Positions 6,038 through 42,100 of a stretch of DNA of 56,404 nt are shown here, one piece after another. How positions within the stretch are numbered: the first letter of the stretch is position 1; each line of letters begins with the position of its first letter. Source of the stretch: Actinomycetes bacterium (GTDB lineage: Bacteria; Actinomycetota; CALGFH01); NCBI GenBank assembly GCA_045807325.1, contig JBJMHP010000348.1:1-56404 (forward strand). Reading direction: 5' to 3'. Under the pieces are notes generated by a model, which searched no databases, had not been told where the DNA came from, and saw nothing but the letters and a program-made list of their open reading frames with translations. The position numbers and the translations under genes were made by a program.

Positions 6038-6115
6038 GAAGACCGCCCCTTCTGGACAGTTTGCGGCAGTCTACGCCACGATACGGTGCAAACGGTGCAT
6101 GCCCGCAGCCGTGAC

Positions 6116-6177
6116 GGGGCTGTGCACAGCTGCCGGCATCCAAGGCCGCGCCGGGCTACCCTCCCGACTGGGGGCCC
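6116..6177 (-). repeat. Dispersed DnaA-box-containing repeat, copy E
   Basis: The minus strand reads gggcccccagtcGGGAGGGTAGCCcggcgcggccttggatgccggcaGCTGTGCACAGCccc. The box is a perfect 12-bp palindrome. It is intergenic, upstream of the 5729-6037 ORF. Confidence 0.7.
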
Positions 6178-6210
6178 GCGCACCGCGAGCGGTTGGTGAG
6201 GGCCGCCCGG

Positions 6211-7026
6211 TTACTGGACCGAGGCGAGGAAGTCGTCGGTCAGGGTGCCGTGGGCGACCTCGCGGGCCGGGCCGGTCATGCGGACGGTGCCACCGGGGGT
6301 CCAGTCGAGCTCCAGGCGGCCGCCGCGCAGCTCGACGACCAGCGGTCGGCCGGCCACGCCTCTGACCTGGGCGGCCACGGCGACCGCGCAGGCGCCAGTT
6401 CCGCAGGCCAGCGTCTCGCCGACCCCTCGCTCCCAGGTCCGCTGGCGGACGGTGGCCCGGTCGACCACCTGGGCGAACTCGACGTTGGTCTTGGCCGGAG
6501 CGAAGGTTGGGTGGTTCTCGAGCCTGGGGCCGAGGGTGGTCACCGCCGCCTTGTCGACGTCGTCCACGAACACCACGGCGTGCGGATTGCCCATGGACAG
6601 GCAGGTGGCGATGACCTGCTCGCCGTCTATCTCGAGGGTGCGCTCGTCATCCAGGGTGGGTGGCCCCATGTCGACGGTGACCCGGTCGATGCCACCGCGG
6701 TCGTCGGCGTGCAGCTTCAGGTGTTTGATCCCCGCCCGGGTCTCCAGGTCGAAGGTGGGGCCGACCAGGCCGCGGTCGCCCAGGTACTTGCCGACCACCC
6801 GGACCCCGTTGCCGCACATCTCGGCCAGCGAGCCGTCGGCGTTGCGGTAGTCCATGAAGAACGGCGTCTCGCCGCCCGGGGCGATGCGGATCAGGCCGTC
6901 CGCCCCGACCCCGAAGTGACGGTCGCAGACCGCCCGGGCCAGTTGCGGGGTGATCCGGTAGCGGTCGGTGAGGTCCTCGACGACCACGAAGTCGTTGCCG
7001 GTGCCGTGCGCCTTGACGAACTCCAC
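6211..7026 (-). CDS. dapF: Diaminopimelate epimerase
   Basis: MEFVKAHGTGNDFVVVED..MCGNGVRV..LACGTGACAVA, with both catalytic Cys motifs. Confidence 0.93.
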   Translation of the reverse strand: MEFVKAHGTGNDFVVVEDLTDRYRITPQLARAVCDRHFGVGADGLIRIAPGGETPFFMDYRNADGSLAEMCGNGVRVVGKYLGDRGLVGPTFDLETRAGIKHLKLHADDRGGIDRVTVDMGPPTLDDERTLEIDGEQVIATCLSMGNPHAVVFVDDVDKAAVTTLGPRLENHPTFAPAKTNVEFAQVVDRATVRQRTWERGVGETLACGTGACAVAVAAQVRGVAGRPLVVELRGGRLELDWTPGGTVRMTGPAREVAHGTLTDDFLASVQ

Positions 7027-8023: not shown

Positions 8024-8893
8024 TCATGGCGCGGTCAGGAGGGCGACCAGGTAGCCCACGCCGTAGGGGGCGTCCTCGTAGAGAACCCGGCCGTGCAGGG
8101 CGGAACCGCTGTGAGCCGCGCCCTCGTCAGAGACGCGGCCGTGCAGGGGTGAGCCGCCGTTGGCCGCATCCTCCCCAGGGCCCTGGTCGCGCACGGCTGG
8201 ACCGGGGTCGCAGGCGCCGGCGAGGACCTGGAGTGGCACTCGGCCGGCGACGAGGAGCTCGGCGGCCTGGGCGGGGTCGAGGTCGAGGAGGCGTTCCGGC
8301 TTCCCGGTGCGGAACGTCTCCGCCACCGCGGCGTCGAACCTCGCTGCTTCGGGCCGGAATGCCCCCGGTGCGCGCTCGGTCCGGCATGCCGACAGGTCCC
8401 CCATCGCCACCAGGCCGACCTGCCCGCCGCCCGCCGCCCGACCCGCGTTCCGGGCCCGGTCGCCGGGGGCCAGCGCCCGGCCGATGGCGGCGGCCGCGCC
8501 CGGTCCGAGCGTGGGCGGGACGGTGGCGGCGAACAGCCGGCTTGGTGGCGCGTCCAGGTCGGCCAGGAGGTGGGCGGCGACGGCCAGCGACAGCGGCAGC
8601 TCGTCGAGCCGGGCGGGTGGGGGCAGGCCGGGCAGGTCGAGGTCGACCAGGGTCGGGAGGGTGACCTCGACGTCGGCGCCGTAGGGCCGGAACGAGCCGG
8701 GCGCGGAGGGCCCGGGCACGGCCCAGACCGGGCCGTCACCGACCAGGACCATGAGGTCGACGGTGGCCAGGACCGCGGCGAGGGCCTGGCCGCAGGCCGC
8801 CCGCAGCGGGTCCAGCTCGCCCGCGGCGGCCCCGGCCAGCTCGGGTACCAGCAGCGGCGGGTGCGGCACGACGGCGGCCGCGACCGGGGGCAT
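8024..8893 (-). CDS. Hypothetical protein, possibly class III extradiol dioxygenase subunit B-like (LigB/MEMO-like fold)
   Basis: The N-terminus MPPVAAAVVPHPPLLVPELAG resembles LigB-like family starts. It sits between miaB and miaA and carries a C-terminal 16-aa tandem duplication. Confidence 0.4.
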   Translation of the reverse strand: MPPVAAAVVPHPPLLVPELAGAAAGELDPLRAACGQALAAVLATVDLMVLVGDGPVWAVPGPSAPGSFRPYGADVEVTLPTLVDLDLPGLPPPARLDELPLSLAVAAHLLADLDAPPSRLFAATVPPTLGPGAAAAIGRALAPGDRARNAGRAAGGGQVGLVAMGDLSACRTERAPGAFRPEAARFDAAVAETFRTGKPERLLDLDPAQAAELLVAGRVPLQVLAGACDPGPAVRDQGPGEDAANGGSPLHGRVSDEGAAHSGSALHGRVLYEDAPYGVGYLVALLTAP

Positions 8894-12393: not shown

Positions 12394-12422
12394 AGGGTAG
12401 GCCCGCGTGCCCTCCCGGTCAA
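12394..12422 (-). promoter_or_regulatory. Candidate sigma-70-type promoter for rny (TTGACC-N17-TACCCT)
   Basis: The minus strand reads ..ccTTGACCgggagggcacgcgggccTACCCTgag. It lies in the 413-bp recX-rny spacer and implies a leader of about 270 nt. Confidence 0.45.
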
Positions 12423-14962: not shown

Positions 14963-15007
14963 GCGAGGCCCCGGGATGGGCGTGCTGCTGTCCCAACCCC
15001 GACTGCT

Positions 15008-15070
15008 GGGGCCCCCGAACGGGAGGGTAGCCGACCGGGCCGGGGGGCGGAGGCGGTTGTCCACAGGGGC
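15008..15070 (+). repeat. Dispersed DnaA-box-containing repeat, copy A
   Basis: ggggcccccgaacGGGAGGGTAGCCgaccgggccggggggcggaggcgGTTGTCCACAGgggcc. It fills most of the cinA-thpR intergenic spacer. Confidence 0.75.
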
Positions 15071-17775: not shown

Positions 17776-19011
17776 CTACCAGCCGCCGCGGTCCGACACC
17801 GCGAAGCCGAGCAGGTCGGCGGCGAGCCCGATCACGGTCGTGGTGGTCCGCACGCCGAGCAGCTGCGGCCGGAGCCGGGCCCCGGCGGCCAGGTGGCGAT
17901 CGTACGGCAGACGCGCCACCCGCACCCCCTGGGAGGCAAGGGTCCTGGTCCCGCGCTTGAGGTCGACGGCCTCGGTGTGGGGGCTCTGGCTGGAGAGGAC
18001 GACGACGGTGCGCGGGAGCAGGGAGGCCGAGGTCTGGCGCAGCCGGGCGATGGCCTGGTGGGCGCTGAGCAGGCCGTCGACGGTGGCCGGGGCGACCAGG
18101 GCGAGGGCCTGGGCGTCCTCGAGGACGCCCAGGTTGAGGCGGCTGGCCGGGTCCGGTCCGCAGTCGGTCACCAGCACCGCGAAGAAGCGCGAGAGGGCGG
18201 CCACGGCCGCCCGGTACGCGGGGAGGTCGAGCCGGGGGGCGGGGTCCGCGCTGGTCGGGCCGGTCAGCAGCCACAGGCCGCTGTCGGTCCGGCCCAGGTG
18301 GGGGTCGGCGTCCTCGAAGGCCTGCGGCTGGGGGGCGGCGCGGCCGAAGCCGGCCACCGGGCGGGGCGAGGCCGCCCCGGCCACCAGGGCCAGGGAGCCC
18401 AGCTCGGGGGCGGCGTCGACGGCCAGGACCCGGTCGGGCCGGGCGGCGGCGAGGGCGGTCGCGACCAGCGCCGCCAGCGTGGTCTTGCCGGCGCCGCCCC
18501 GGCCGCTCAGCACGGCGATCCTTCGGATGGTGGTCACCGGCTGACGCAGCCGCTCGGCCCGGGTGGTGGCCTCGCGGACCTCCCGCGAGGCGCCCATGCC
18601 CAGCACCTCCCGCACACGCCGGGCGGCCTGTCTGGCCACCGGGTCCCGGTGGTGCCTGGGCCGGGTGAACTGCTCCGGATCGAGGTCGCCCGGCGCCAGC
18701 CCGCGGCGCCCGTCCTCCTCGGGCCCCGGGACCACGGACCCGGCCCCGGGGTCGGCCCCCTGGAGGGGGAGCGTAGCCGACCCGGGAGTGGGGCGTGCCG
18801 GGTTGTCCACAGCCGGGGCCGCATCGGCTCCCGCGGCCGGGTCGGCGCTCGGGGATGAGTCGGGACCCTGAGCCGCATCGGTGCCCCGGGACGGGGCGGC
18901 ACCCGGGGCTGGATCGGCGCCCGGCGCCGGTTCAGGACCCATCCCCAGGTCGCGGAGGACCGACGAACCCCAGTCCTGCTCGGGGGGGTCTGGTTCTCGC
19001 TCCGGGCGCAT
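17776..19011 (-). CDS. T7SS-associated ParA/MinD-like ATPase (EspI-like architecture): long Pro/Ala/Gly-rich N-terminus plus a deviant Walker A domain
   Basis: RRIAVLSGRGGAGKTTLAALVATALA..VLAVDAAPELG..VLVTDCGPD. The ATG at 19011 overlaps the eccD stop (TGATG). The true start is uncertain because repeat copy C lies in the N-terminal region. Confidence 0.7.
   Translation of the reverse strand: MRPEREPDPPEQDWGSSVLRDLGMGPEPAPGADPAPGAAPSRGTDAAQGPDSSPSADPAAGADAAPAVDNPARPTPGSATLPLQGADPGAGSVVPGPEEDGRRGLAPGDLDPEQFTRPRHHRDPVARQAARRVREVLGMGASREVREATTRAERLRQPVTTIRRIAVLSGRGGAGKTTLAALVATALAAARPDRVLAVDAAPELGSLALVAGAASPRPVAGFGRAAPQPQAFEDADPHLGRTDSGLWLLTGPTSADPAPRLDLPAYRAAVAALSRFFAVLVTDCGPDPASRLNLGVLEDAQALALVAPATVDGLLSAHQAIARLRQTSASLLPRTVVVLSSQSPHTEAVDLKRGTRTLASQGVRVARLPYDRHLAAGARLRPQLLGVRTTTTVIGLAADLLGFAVSDRGGW
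18754..18816 (+). repeat. Dispersed DnaA-box-containing repeat, copy C (more diverged 5' half)
   Basis: ggccccctggaGGGGGAGCGTAGCCgacccgggagtggggcgtgccgGGTTGTCCACAGccgggg. It lies in-frame inside the N-terminal low-complexity part of the ParA-like ORF (..APAVDNPARPTPGSATLPLQG..). Confidence 0.65.
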
Positions 19012-36437: not shown

Positions 36438-36443
36438 TACCCT
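36438..36443 (+). promoter_or_regulatory. Candidate -10 (TACCCT) for the orphan WXG-like gene
   Basis: cgtTACCCTcca, about 70 nt upstream of ATG 36517. It is the same hexamer as the rny candidate -10. Confidence 0.25.
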
Positions 36444-36833: not shown

Positions 36834-36853
36834 GGTAGCTGCACAGGCCCCCC
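36834..36853 (+). repeat. Collapsed or partial copy of the dispersed repeat
   Basis: GGTAGC-TGCACAGgcccccc. The two conserved ends of the repeat are joined without the variable spacer, about 80 bp upstream of full copy B. Confidence 0.35.
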
Positions 36854-36919
36854 GACCCGGGCCCGGACCCCCGACCGGGCCCGGGCCCCCCCTGTCCGCT
36901 CCCCCTCCCCACCGCGGCT

Positions 36920-36982
36920 GGGCCCCCGGTTCGGGAGGGTAGCGAGCCGCGGTGGCCCGGTCTCGTCACTGTCCACAGCCCC
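36920..36982 (+). repeat. Dispersed DnaA-box-containing repeat, copy B
   Basis: gggcccccggttcGGGAGGGTAGCGagccgcggtggcccggtctcgtcaCTGTCCACAGcccc. It is intergenic, about 75 nt upstream of the alkA-like ATG. Confidence 0.75.
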
Positions 36983-37055
36983 GTCGGGCCGTTCCCTCTG
37001 CGCCTGTGGGCCGAGCCTCTCGTGCTTGTCGGTTGGGCGTGCCAAGATCCGGGCG

Positions 37056-39196: not shown

Positions 39197-42100
39197 CTAG
39201 CCGCGCAGCCGGAGGCCCCGGGCGGTGGGCCGGAACCCGGCCTCAGTGAGCGCCCGGGCCAGGGGGCTGTCGAACACCGTCCCGCCATCGGCCTTCTCGA
39301 CCGCCAGCCGGCCCAGGGCGCCGTCGCGCACGGCCAGGGCGAGGGCGTCGGCCGCCCTGGCCAGCCGGTCGGGGTCGTCGGTGAAGGTGAGCAGGGTCCG
39401 GCCGCCGCGCTCCACGTACAGGACCAGCCCGCCGTCGACCAGGATCACCACCGCCCCGGCCTTCCGCCCCGGCCGGTGGCCAGGGCGCTCCCCGGTGCTC
39501 CCGGGGGCGGGGCGCTCCGGCCAGGCCAGGGCGGCCCCGTACGGGTTCGCCGGGTCGGCCGCGGCCAGCACCTGGGTCTGAGGGGAGGACGGCGGGTCGG
39601 TCAGGGCCCGCAGGCGGTCGACGGCCCCCGGGACGGCGAACTGGGCCCCGCCCAGCCCGTCGACGAAGTACCCGCGCCGGCAACGGCCGGAGTCCTCCAT
39701 CGCCTTCAGCACCGGGTACACGCCGGCGAACCCGCCCGGGATCCGCTCGGCCACCACCGTCCCCCTGGTCAGGATCCCGTGCCGGTCCAGCAGCTGCTCG
39801 GCCACCGCGTGCAGCCGCCGGGTCGGGTCCACCTCCGCGGGCCGGGAGGCGGGGCTGTGGACAACCGAGGCCCCGGCCTCCCCCACCGGGCTACCCTCCC
39901 GAACCGGGGGTCCCGGCACGGCAGGGCGAGGCTCGGGTGTGCCCGGTGTTGGGCGCCCCGACGCGGCGTCCTCGGGCTCCCGCGCGAGCGCGGGACCCAC
40001 GGACGCGGGGCCCACGGACCCCCCCGATCCCACGGACGCAGGGCCCACGGACCCCACGGCGGCCGGGGTGAGGCTCCAGCGCCCGGCGGCCGCCGCCGGG
40101 GCGGCGCGGGTTGGCCGGGCCGGGGCGCGGCGGCCGTAGCGGCGGGTGGGGGCTCGGCGGCGGGCGGCGGGGCGGGACCCGCCGCTGACCAGGGCCCGGA
40201 GGGGGGCCAGGGTGTCGTTGGTGACCTGGCCGGCCCAGACCAGCTCCCAGATGGCCAGCAGCAGCTCGCTGTCGTTGTCCGCGGCGACGGCGTCCGAGAG
40301 CTGGCGGAAGAACATCGCCCCCCGTCCGGCCAGGGCGTCGCGGACCCGGACGGCCAGCGGGGACAGCTCGACCGGCAGCGGCTCCGGCAGCAGGAGCGGA
40401 GCACCCTCGGCCAGGTACAGGCCCACCCAGCCGTCGTCGGAGCCGAGCGCCCCGGCCCCGGCCCAGACGACCTCGCCGGAGGCGCACAGCTCGTCCAGCA
40501 GGCCCGGGTGGTAGCCGGGGAGGCGGGCGGCCAGGATCTGGCGCTCCAGGGCCGAGGCGGGCACGGCCGCCCCCTGGAGCTGCTCGACCACCCGGAACAG
40601 GGCGTCGGCGTCGGCCGAGCGGGGCCCGGTCGGCCCGATCCCCTGCCAGGCGCCGAGGAAGCGGGCCATCGCCTCCTGGGGGACGGGCTCGACCTCGCGG
40701 CGCAGGGCGGCCAGGGAGCGGCGCCGCAGCCGGCGCAGCACCTCGGCGTCCAGCCACTCCCGGCCCGACCCGCCCGGACGGAACTCACCCTCCACGACCC
40801 GCCCGGCCGCCTCCAGCCGGGCCAGGGTCTGGTCCACCACGGCCACGCCCAGCCCGAGCCGGCGGGCCGGGTCGGCCGAGACGAACGGCCCGTGGGTGCG
40901 GGCGTAGCGGGCCAGCAGGTCGCCGACCGGGTCGGCCACCGGCTCCAGGAACGCCTGGGGGACCCCGACCGGCGGGGCCGCCCCGAGCCCGTCGCGCAGC
41001 CGGGCCACGTCCTCGATGGCCACCCAGCGCTCCTGGCCGCCGACTCGCAACCGCACCGCCCGCCGCGAGCCCTCCAGCTCGGCCAGCCAGCCAGGAGCGG
41101 CGTCGGGGGCGACACTGCGGGCGGCCACCTCCTGCACGGTCAGGTCGCCGAGCAGCCGCAGGGCGTCGTGCAGCCCGTCGGGGTCCCGGACCTTGCGGTC
41201 GGGGGTGAGCAGCTGCAGCTCCAGCTCCAGGTCGGCCAGGGCGGCCTGGTCGATCAGGTCGCGCAGCTCCTCACGGCCCAGCAGCTCGGCCAGGACGGAC
41301 CGGTCCAGCGACAGGGCCTGGGCCCGCCGCTCGGCCAGGGGGGTGTCGCCCTCGTACATGAAGGCGGCCACGTACCCGAACTGCAGCGAGCTGGCGAACG
41401 GCGACGGGAACGGGGTGTCGACCTCGACCACCCGGACCTCCCGGCTGGCCACACTGGCCATCAGGTCCTTGAGCCCGGGCAGGTCGAACACGTCCTGGAG
41501 GCACTCGCGCATCGTCTCCAGCACCACCGGGAACGACCCGTACTTGGAGGCCACCTGGAGCAGCCCGGCGCTGCGCTGGCGCTGCTGCCACAGGGGCGTG
41601 CGCCGGTCGGGGCGGCGCCGGGGCAGCAGCAGGGCCCGGGCCGCGCACTCCCGGAAGCGGCTGGCGAACAGGGCCGACGAGCCGACCTCGCCCACCACCA
41701 GGTCCTCGATCTCGTCGGGGTCGAACAGGATCGACTCGGCCGCCGGGGCCTCGTCGACCTCGGGGAGGCGCACCACCACCCCGTCGTCGGTGTACATGGT
41801 CTGGACCTCGAGGCCGAGGCGCTCCCGGACCCTGGCCTCGATGGCCTGGGACCAGGGGGCGTGGACCTGGGCGCCGAAGGGCGAGTGGACACAGACCCGC
41901 CAGTCGCCGAGCTCGTCGCGGAACCGCTCGACCACGATGGTGCGGTCGTCGGGCAGGACCCCGGTCGCCTCGCGCTGCTCGTCCAGGTAGGCGGCCAGGT
42001 TCCGGGCGGCGAAGTCGTCCAGCCCGGCCGCGGTCAGCCGCTCGGCGCGGGCGTCGGCGTCCAGGCCCGCCTGCTCGCGCAGGAACCCGCCGAGGGCGCG

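Follow-up and report, generated by a model that had tools for sequence, protein, structure and literature searches.

Known small interspersed repeats of bacteria (REP, MITE, RPE, Correia, ERIC) are recognised by a hairpin or by ends that are inverted copies of each other. The Rickettsia palindromic elements (RPE) are lineage-restricted palindromes of about 100 bp with predicted hairpins, and they are also found in-frame within genes. The actinobacterial MIRU-VNTR repeats are 40–100 bp long and the unit itself stands in a head-to-tail array. E. coli boxC, of about 56 bp and few copies, is GC-rich and without dyad symmetry; to our knowledge it has neither a bipartite invariant core nor in-gene copies.

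The element described here was found in five copies (A to E) in a 56,404-nt stretch of DNA of 74% G+C (the window). It is a small bacterial interspersed repeat that does not have the structure by which REP, RPE, MIRU or boxC is defined. With RPE it shares a length of about 100 bp, confinement to one lineage and placement both between genes and in-frame in conserved genes, to which a tolerated peptide segment is added. In contrast to RPE, it has no fold and possesses an invariant bipartite core, a spacer of fixed length and flanking tandem repeats. REP and REPIN sequences are similar in being GC-rich, in their tens to hundreds of copies, in their position at gene 3′ ends with promoters avoided, in long vertical persistence and in the tetranucleotide GTAG. 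However, the imperfect palindrome, inverted doublets and strictly extragenic placement of REP were not seen here, and no linked RAYT (Y1 transposase) gene was found among 544 neighbouring ORFs. The first-pass annotation of the window had favoured a REP- or MITE-like element; this likeness is not sustained, since palindrome or hairpin and terminal inverted repeats are absent and sites with and without the element show no clear target duplication.

A likeness to MIRU, also drawn at first pass, extends to the actinobacterial host, the length of 40–100 bp, the frequent position between co-directional genes along the direction of transcription, the association with VNTRs and the sharing of stop codons with ORFs. 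It does not extend to structure: the core is present in single copy and is not tandemly repeated, the repeats being confined to the flanks. Copies also lie within genes, and no sequence relationship to MIRU was found. BoxC resembles the element as a GC-rich dispersed repeat in which dyad symmetry is absent. DnaA-box clusters (datA, DARS and those of Streptomyces and B. subtilis) resemble it in placing a consensus high-affinity box away from the origin, and some copies of the element carry arrays of the box. Those clusters, however, are few unique loci with several boxes each, whereas the element forms a mobile family of about 100 copies with one DnaA box and, at a fixed distance, an unrelated second box. 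The combination of a bipartite core that includes a DnaA box, an absent fold and flanking tandem repeats is unusual.

Layout of the window copies and of the family profile

The five copies are real, each at the position and in the orientation originally reported for it in the 56,404-nt window. As a test against chance background, the pattern GGGAGSGTAGC-N{15,40}-TGTSCACAG has exactly five matches in the window and none in 100 shuffles. An nhmmer model of 94 copies from other genomes, built without the window, picks out these five copies and nothing else at E<10, with E-values of 9e-17 (D), 5e-15 (A), 9e-12 (E), 5e-10 (B) and 3e-9 (C). All five pattern matches are exactly 46 bp long, which fixes the spacer from GTAGC to TGT at 26 nt; the variable spacer of 25–30 nt first described is thus replaced by one of exactly 26 nt in 5/5 window copies. 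The initial length of ~60 bp was too short, as the profile carries D, E and A a further ~45–58 nt upstream; B and C are without this upstream module. The letters of box 2 had been read correctly, as TTGTCCACA in A, C and D, CTGTCCACA in B and GCTGTGCACAGC in E. A sixth, collapsed copy had been placed at 36834–36853. Its letters are present, but as a copy of the element it gives no profile match even at E<10 and the orthologous stretch at locus L019 reads differently; it was treated as a chance resemblance.

Copies E, A and D are full length. Copy E occupies 6114–6215 on the minus strand (profile E=9.4e-12; core 6120–6165), with box 1 at 6155–6165 and the box 2 variant TGTGCACAG at 6120–6128 on the same strand. 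It lies in sense orientation in the intergenic stretch that separates the dapF stop codon from the next minus-strand gene, and its orthologue is conserved at L024. Copy A, at 14976–15067 on the plus strand (profile E=4.6e-15; core 15021–15066), carries the DnaA-box 9-mer TTGTCCACA at 15057–15065; it is intergenic and antisense, with the cinA stop codon (15075) on one side and, on the other, the next minus-strand gene, which starts at ~14964, and the spacer of its orthologue at L072 is 27 nt. Copy D, at 39849–39951 on the minus strand (profile E=8.9e-17; core 39855–39900), lies in sense orientation and in-frame in lhr, in the WH3–WH4 interval. Directly 5′ of it, in the orientation of the element, Tandem Repeats Finder (TRF) detects a 15-nt repeat of 4.1 units at 39989–40059.

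The two remaining copies are shorter. Copy C, at 18751–18814 on the plus strand (profile E=2.7e-9; core 18767–18812), belongs to the short GGGAGCGTAGC subfamily, which is without the upstream module. It is intergenic and antisense, just 5′ of a ParA/CbiA-like minus-strand gene, and an 18-nt tandem repeat of 6.6 units (18813–18930, TRF) begins at its 3′ edge. Copy B is 5′-truncated and occupies 36908–36984 on the plus strand (profile E=4.6e-10; core 36933–36978; box 2 CTGTCCACA). This copy is intergenic and in sense orientation between a WXG100 gene and the next plus-strand gene, with an 18-nt tandem repeat of 2.3 units and 91% matches directly 5′ of it (36849–36890, TRF) and orthologues at L100, L019, L022 and L105. 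The earlier count of three intergenic copies and two translated in-frame is therefore revised: by codon-position GC, E, A, C and B lie between genes, and D alone is truly in-frame within one. A long ORF runs across C, and its coding signal, by the same measure, is gone beyond ~18750.

The anatomy of the element was taken from a profile of 99 copies, in which the first G of box 1 is position 0. The element measures ~70–105 bp, the core ~62–70 bp, or ~100 bp together with the C-rich upstream module. Its consensus reads GGSSCCC-N5-GGGAGGGTAGCC, then 24 bp of fixed length and free sequence, then G-Y-TGTCCACA-G-CCCC. The C-rich module, at about −58 to −20 with consensus CCCGGGCRCGCCGGAACCYCACCCGCCGG, contains indels and is followed by GG(G/C)(C/G)CCC at −12 to −6, variable positions at −5 to −2 and C at −1. 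Box 1, GGGAGGGTAGCC, spans 0 to +11. The spacer is G-rich (50% G) with partial preferences for R at +13, GGA at about +19 to +21 and G at +26, +28 and +35. A pyrimidine at +36 precedes box 2, TGTCCACAG at +37 to +45; CCCC follows at +46 to +49, and conservation ends sharply beyond it. A second subfamily, GGGGGAGCGTAGCC, has no upstream module and includes window copy C. No terminal inverted repeats are present, the left end (CCCGGGC...) and the right end (...CACAGCCCC) not being complementary. As a separate observation, box 1 contains GGAGG.

Box 2 had been annotated as the consensus high-GC actinobacterial DnaA box, and the match stands: for both M. tuberculosis and S. coelicolor, TTGTCCACA is listed as the DnaA box of high affinity (PMC4285127). 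The 9-mer is perfect in A, C and D and matches at 8/9 positions in B, and 4/5 of the DnaA-box matches with an intact TCCACA core in the window lie within elements. Since nothing in its sequence distinguishes box 2 from the DnaA boxes of actinobacteria, DnaA is one candidate binder of the core.

Distribution, age and insertion

The proposal that these copies belong to a genuine dispersed repeat family, and do not represent a single-purpose promoter, is borne out. The family numbers more than 220 copies, spread over about seven MAGs of uncultured Actinomycetota and over soil metagenomes. A scan with GGGAGGGTAGC-N{22,30}-TGTCCACAG of one genome per bacterial species gave at least 101 loci. Although gaps of 22–30 nt were allowed, the gap is 26 nt in 105 of the 109 pattern matches listed (window included). 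Nearly all listed genome loci come from six or seven uncultured Actinomycetota or Actinomycetes MAGs, among them SMAG_U5946, U6696, U8966, CMU.bins.340, ERR671912_bin.21 and MFD00962.bin.2.98. Such bins may be contaminated; two short element-bearing contigs are binned as Acidimicrobiales and Gemmatimonadales. Matches in SAR202 and Paractinoplanes have other spacings and look like chance. The Paractinoplanes match (L027, 44-bp spacing), the sole one in a cultured organism among those listed, lies 5′ of an ordinary ORF with only 2–3 DnaA boxes; it was treated as a chance match, and an origin of the repeat from oriC was rejected. A second scan, of soil metagenomes, was selected on box 1 and GGSSCCC only, leaving box 2 free, and gave at least 120 further loci.

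No relevant match was obtained in the plasmids, phages and viral contigs scanned, and an origin from any of these was set aside. In the blocks of sequence fetched around the loci, copies additional to the ascertained one occur about once per 50–90 kb, so that the window, with five copies in 56 kb, is dense. The first-pass statement that no element of this composition had been described agrees with our searches. Rfam gave no match at gathering scores across the whole window, relaxing the cut-off to E≤10 brought up nothing beyond noise around copies D and E, and a full-text literature search with the box sequences returned unrelated papers only. The element is a previously undescribed family of short interspersed repeats, confined to a single soil lineage of uncultured Actinomycetota.

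The copies are old. All five window copies have orthologues at the same sites in MAGs ~79–90% identical to the window. When copies were compared at their variable positions, the nearest relative lay within the same genome for only 14 of 95; nearest relatives are mostly in other genomes, which gives no sign of recent bursts within genomes, and these were rejected. The boxes have changed far less than the spacer. In 790 kb, 105 of 116 profile matches keep all 20 box positions, and spacer identity is 69% between orthologous pairs against 49% between random pairs while the orthologous boxes are intact, a comparison biased by the selection of both members of each pair on the boxes. Box conservation is thus partly measured on box-selected copies, and the unbiased test is that of box 2 in the metagenome set, which was selected on box 1. 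There, among the copies listed, T, G, T, C, C, A, C and A at +37 to +44 are kept in 88–100%, G at +45 in 74%, CCCC at +46 to +49 in 80–88% and G at +35 in 93%; TCCACA stands at +39 to +44 in 116 of the 121 copies listed, 7 of them shifted by 1 nt. Since twenty positions would not have stayed intact by chance at the rate at which the spacer changes, we take the boxes, together with the distance between them, to be under purifying selection where the copies sit.

It was clearly insertion that brought the copies to their sites. Compared with M. smegmatis Lhr (PDB 7LHL), the Lhr of the window carries a 73-residue insertion at residue 1294, in the WH3–WH4 interval, with both sides aligning. The 3′ half of the insertion is copy D and the other half is the adjoining tandem repeat at 39989–40059. 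The insertion is absent from Lhr homologues that are at least 90% identical on both sides (P0008/P0017, P0009 and P0011). Homologue P0003 carries the element, and P0007, with the flanks of P0003, has a different short sequence at the site. Four more pairs of filled and empty sites were found (L091/L108, L074/L143, L144/L141 and L149/L193), none with inverted ends. Across such pairs the right boundary is constant at +48 to +52 and the left boundary varies from about −22 to −95; this asymmetry, with the right end constant and the left end variable, offers a clue to how the element may be mobilised. In the five filled/empty comparisons there is no clear target duplication, at most 2–3 ambiguous C being shared, and the junction regions are divergent. 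At L031 and L082 the element occupies the same intergenic region in opposite orientations. Copies within genes occupy loops or linkers, the conserved genes concerned being lhr, smc (at L005 the core lies within the match to the SMC hinge) and a probable transporter.

Coding context, absence of a fold and flanking tandem repeats

Coding regions were called by a codon-position GC heuristic. Where both flanks are coding on the strand of the element, they share a frame in 16/23 and 9/13 cases (25/36 together), figures in which some orthologous loci count more than once, and most of these frames are open across the element. In-frame copies use two different frames; the third meets the TAG of box 1, which in 13 cases is the stop codon of the upstream gene. 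Many copies begin directly past a stop codon. Among 544 neighbouring ORFs there is no recurring gene family, and neither a linked transposase nor another associated gene was found in this set. Autonomous or split copies are likewise absent from ~1.4 Mb of flanks.

A conserved RNA structure in the spacer, which the first pass had raised, was not found. RNAalifold on 40 or 99 copies gave about −4.5 kcal/mol with five invariant pairs and 0 compensatory changes. In a comparison of self and cross duplexes, the two halves of a copy paired with no better energy than halves of different copies. An all-against-all positional scan detected covariation solely at 1-nt register shifts upstream of box 1 and none in the core, and MFE z-scores against dinucleotide shuffles were −0.15 for the forward strand and +0.04 for the reverse strand. 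On these four analyses an RNA or single-stranded DNA structure was rejected. A G-quadruplex was also rejected, the motif being present in 35–43% of copies against 31–32% after shuffling of the spacer. An arrangement GGUAGCCG...GGAA...GGCUG, which we take to resemble helix 45 of 16S rRNA, has no covariation support. The absence of a fold on either strand sets the element apart from REP, RPE, MITE and IS200-type derivatives.

Tandem repeats accompany the core at its flanks. TRF was applied to 1.4 Mb of locus sequence, and repeats with a period of at least 9 nt lying within 100 nt of an element were counted. Such a repeat adjoins 55% of 224 elements, as against 15% of random positions in the same loci (maximum 22% in 200 trials). 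Coverage by tandem repeats is 30–35% at −100 to −40 and 15–20% at +40 to +100, falls to 0.2% at 0 to +20, and returns to a background of ~2% by ~200 nt on either side. Upstream arrays end at −50 to −10, in some copies abutting box 1, and downstream arrays begin near +40 with units that often include CCACAGCCCC. Most of the periods are divisible by three. Such repeats adjoin 3/5 window copies (C, B and D). The core itself is essentially never duplicated, L034 being the sole locus at which its right part is repeated.

Two filled/empty comparisons bear on the order of events. At L149 a 26-nt unit of the host, including the stop codon of the gene, is present four times, and the empty site L193 has a single copy; and the repeat beside copy D is absent from relatives without the element (window lhr against L102/L105). 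This suggests that repeats arise beside an existing core. The association could be partly passive, with elements surviving only in repeat-prone linkers and spacers.

Possible roles of the core

We propose, with a probability of roughly 0.4, that the element is an inserted and now mostly vertically inherited module of duplex DNA that binds protein and has slippage-prone flanks. A protein-read site in duplex DNA is what the fixed but free spacer, the lack of a fold, the conservation irrespective of frame or coding status and the unduplicated core with repeated flanks would together point to. The core would be a double-stranded site for a sequence-specific protein or complex making two contacts ~35 bp apart. 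Copies would have inserted in an ancestor and then been inherited mostly vertically under purifying selection on the boxes. Once bound, the core may act as a local obstacle or as a hot spot for nicking and repair, and slippage of replication or repair there could generate the flanking tandem duplications.

The element might instead be a purely selfish, non-autonomous transposable element without host function, whose boxes serve a transposase or recombinase encoded elsewhere. Presence/absence differences among close relatives, the opposite orientations at L031 and L082 and the tolerated insertion into genes all fit this account, and the constant right end with a varying left end resembles one-ended or 5′-truncating mobilisation. 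We nevertheless regard it as doubtful. There are no inverted ends, clear target duplications or end hairpins, no linked or split autonomous copy occurs in the ~1.4 Mb of flanks, and none was seen on the plasmids, phages and viral contigs scanned; moreover, the copies are old and divergent yet orthologous boxes are intact, and selection on the element alone should not maintain fixed old copies. As the first pass had suggested, the copies may also be distributed DnaA sites, whose high-affinity boxes would titrate or position the initiator away from oriC, as do datA, DARS and DnaA-box clusters. The sequence of box 2 is TGTCCACA in ~90% of copies; in the set where box 2 was unselected, variation follows that of actinobacterial DnaA boxes, falling at positions 1–3 (T/C, T/C, G/A, including TATCCACA) with TCCACA kept; most intact DnaA boxes of the window lie in elements, as given above; and a minority of copies have 2–9 tandem box 2 units. 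Against a role as DnaA sites, conservation outruns the 9-mer to G+35, G+45 and the CCCC that follows, position 1 of the box is C slightly more often than T (about half of copies), most copies have a single box, and box 1 with its fixed 26-nt spacing has no known role in DnaA recognition. On balance such a function seems unlikely, and slightly more so its extension to a module that propagates through the chromosome of one actinobacterial lineage, each copy bringing a high-affinity DnaA box and, at a fixed 35 bp from it, a second protein site; the copies would then form a network that titrates DnaA or blocks replication.

Orientation brings in two further accounts. Among the loci listed, the upstream gene is co-oriented with the element in 41 cases and opposed in 11 (genome set), and in 41 and 24 cases (metagenome set), or 82 sense against 35 when combined (~70% sense). 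In-gene copies identified by an ORF test are also mostly sense (24 against 9). The moderate bias relative to the upstream gene would not be expected of a pure duplex-DNA site, nor do stop codons explain it, the antisense strand of the boxes being open in all frames; for this reason an RNA-level role is kept as a minority view. The boxes would then be single-stranded sites in mRNA or a 3′ UTR that are recognised by a trans-acting RNA, an RNase or another RNA-binding protein, a role to which the many copies directly past a stop codon and the GGAGG of box 1 would also be suited. This we consider improbable: ~30% of copies are antisense with equally intact boxes (A and C in the window), structure, covariation, a terminator, a fixed distance to a start codon and an Rfam match are all absent, and the bias in the listed metagenome loci is weak, with 32 downstream genes co-oriented against 36 opposed. 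A promoter, in which the reverse-strand TACCCT of box 1 is a −10 or box 2 an outward −35, is the least credible, and a sigma-70-type promoter was rejected. TACCCT does lie opposite box 1, as well as at 12394–12399 and 36438–36443, as originally noted; GCTACCCT fits TANNNT; the hexamer faces the start of a minus-strand gene in copies A and C; and a −10-like hexamer stands 3′ of box 2 at individual loci such as L042 and L026. As a general −10, however, TACCCT would in ~70% of classifiable copies drive antisense transcription into the 3′ end of the gene upstream, so that the orientation is wrong for most copies. The partner hexamer is not conserved, neither as a −35 at 16–19 nt nor downstream of box 2. 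Intervals between divergent genes are nearly devoid of copies (0 in the genome set and 2 in the metagenome set, listed loci), copies lie inside lhr and smc, and the conserved positions far exceed what a promoter needs. Of ten TACCCT in the window four are in elements, and the other six compare with 5.3 expected by chance.

The duplex-DNA module remains the preferred reading, and two boxes kept at a fixed distance over speciation point to a stretch of DNA that is read by a protein and has a role in the cell. If DnaA binds box 2, the element would be a new way to distribute initiator-binding sites. If such a DnaA network is real, the timing of initiation would be influenced and variable tandem repeats would be created beside its sites, including inside smc and lhr. 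At a practical level, MAG assemblies break at the element, and it adds to the spurious ORFs called in these genomes of 74% GC. About 100 bp of repeat DNA can reside in-frame in the SMC hinge and in Lhr, and the tie between a conserved core and the local generation of tandem repeats may offer strain markers for this uncultured soil group.

Opposite orientations and tandem repeats around the element

The element occupies the same intergenic region in two metagenome-assembled genomes (MAGs), in opposite orientations (loci L031, 5970-6015, minus strand, and L082, 4767-4812). At L031 the element's own 38-nt upstream module is present in 3.2 tandem copies, which reach as far as box 1. L034 is the sole locus seen in which part of the core is itself in tandem; here, at 6382-6500, the unit GTAG-spacer-TGTCCACAGCCACC (approximately 41 nt, two-thirds of the core counted from its right end) is present about three times.

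In the window, copy D lies in-frame in lhr and forms the 3' half of a 73-aa insertion relative to M. smegmatis Lhr. The non-element half (39952-40057) consists of 12-15-nt tandem units (GTCCGTGGGYCCCGC), which encode VGSVGPAS-like repeats and are absent from close relatives. A separate 48-nt tandem repeat (8059-8167; 2.3 copies, 75% matches) has no element copy nearby.

In the region 740-900 of L027 (Paractinoplanes lichenicola), TTGTCCACAGG occurs twice, 33 nt apart, together with repeated GGGTCTGCGG motifs and a 65-nt sequence duplicated in tandem. They lie upstream of an ORF starting near 969. L027 does not belong to the family (44-bp spacing), nor is it oriC.

The TACCCT hexamer

TACCCT, the hexamer read opposite box 1, also occurs at 36438-36443 in the window, a few nucleotides 5' of the WXG100 ORF (first listed start codon, 36448). 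This position fits a candidate leaderless-type promoter for the ORF; the first-pass annotation had proposed the hexamer as a -10 candidate from sequence. Outside the elements, TACCCT is not enriched in the window.

Contig ends and binning

Element copies lie less than 100 nt from a contig end at five loci (L009, L024, L045, L067 and L080). This placement at the termini of several MAG contigs suggests that the repeat disrupts short-read assembly of the genomes that carry it. Typical 46-bp cores were also found on short contigs (<2 kb) assigned to unrelated phyla, an Acidimicrobiales MAG (L039) and a Gemmatimonadales MAG (L048); mis-binning is a more likely explanation for these two than true occurrence.

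Box 1 as a stop codon

The TAG within box 1 (GGGAGGGTAGCC), at core position +7, terminates the upstream gene at thirteen loci, L091, L050 and L084 among them. The C-terminus of the encoded protein is therefore supplied by the element at these loci.
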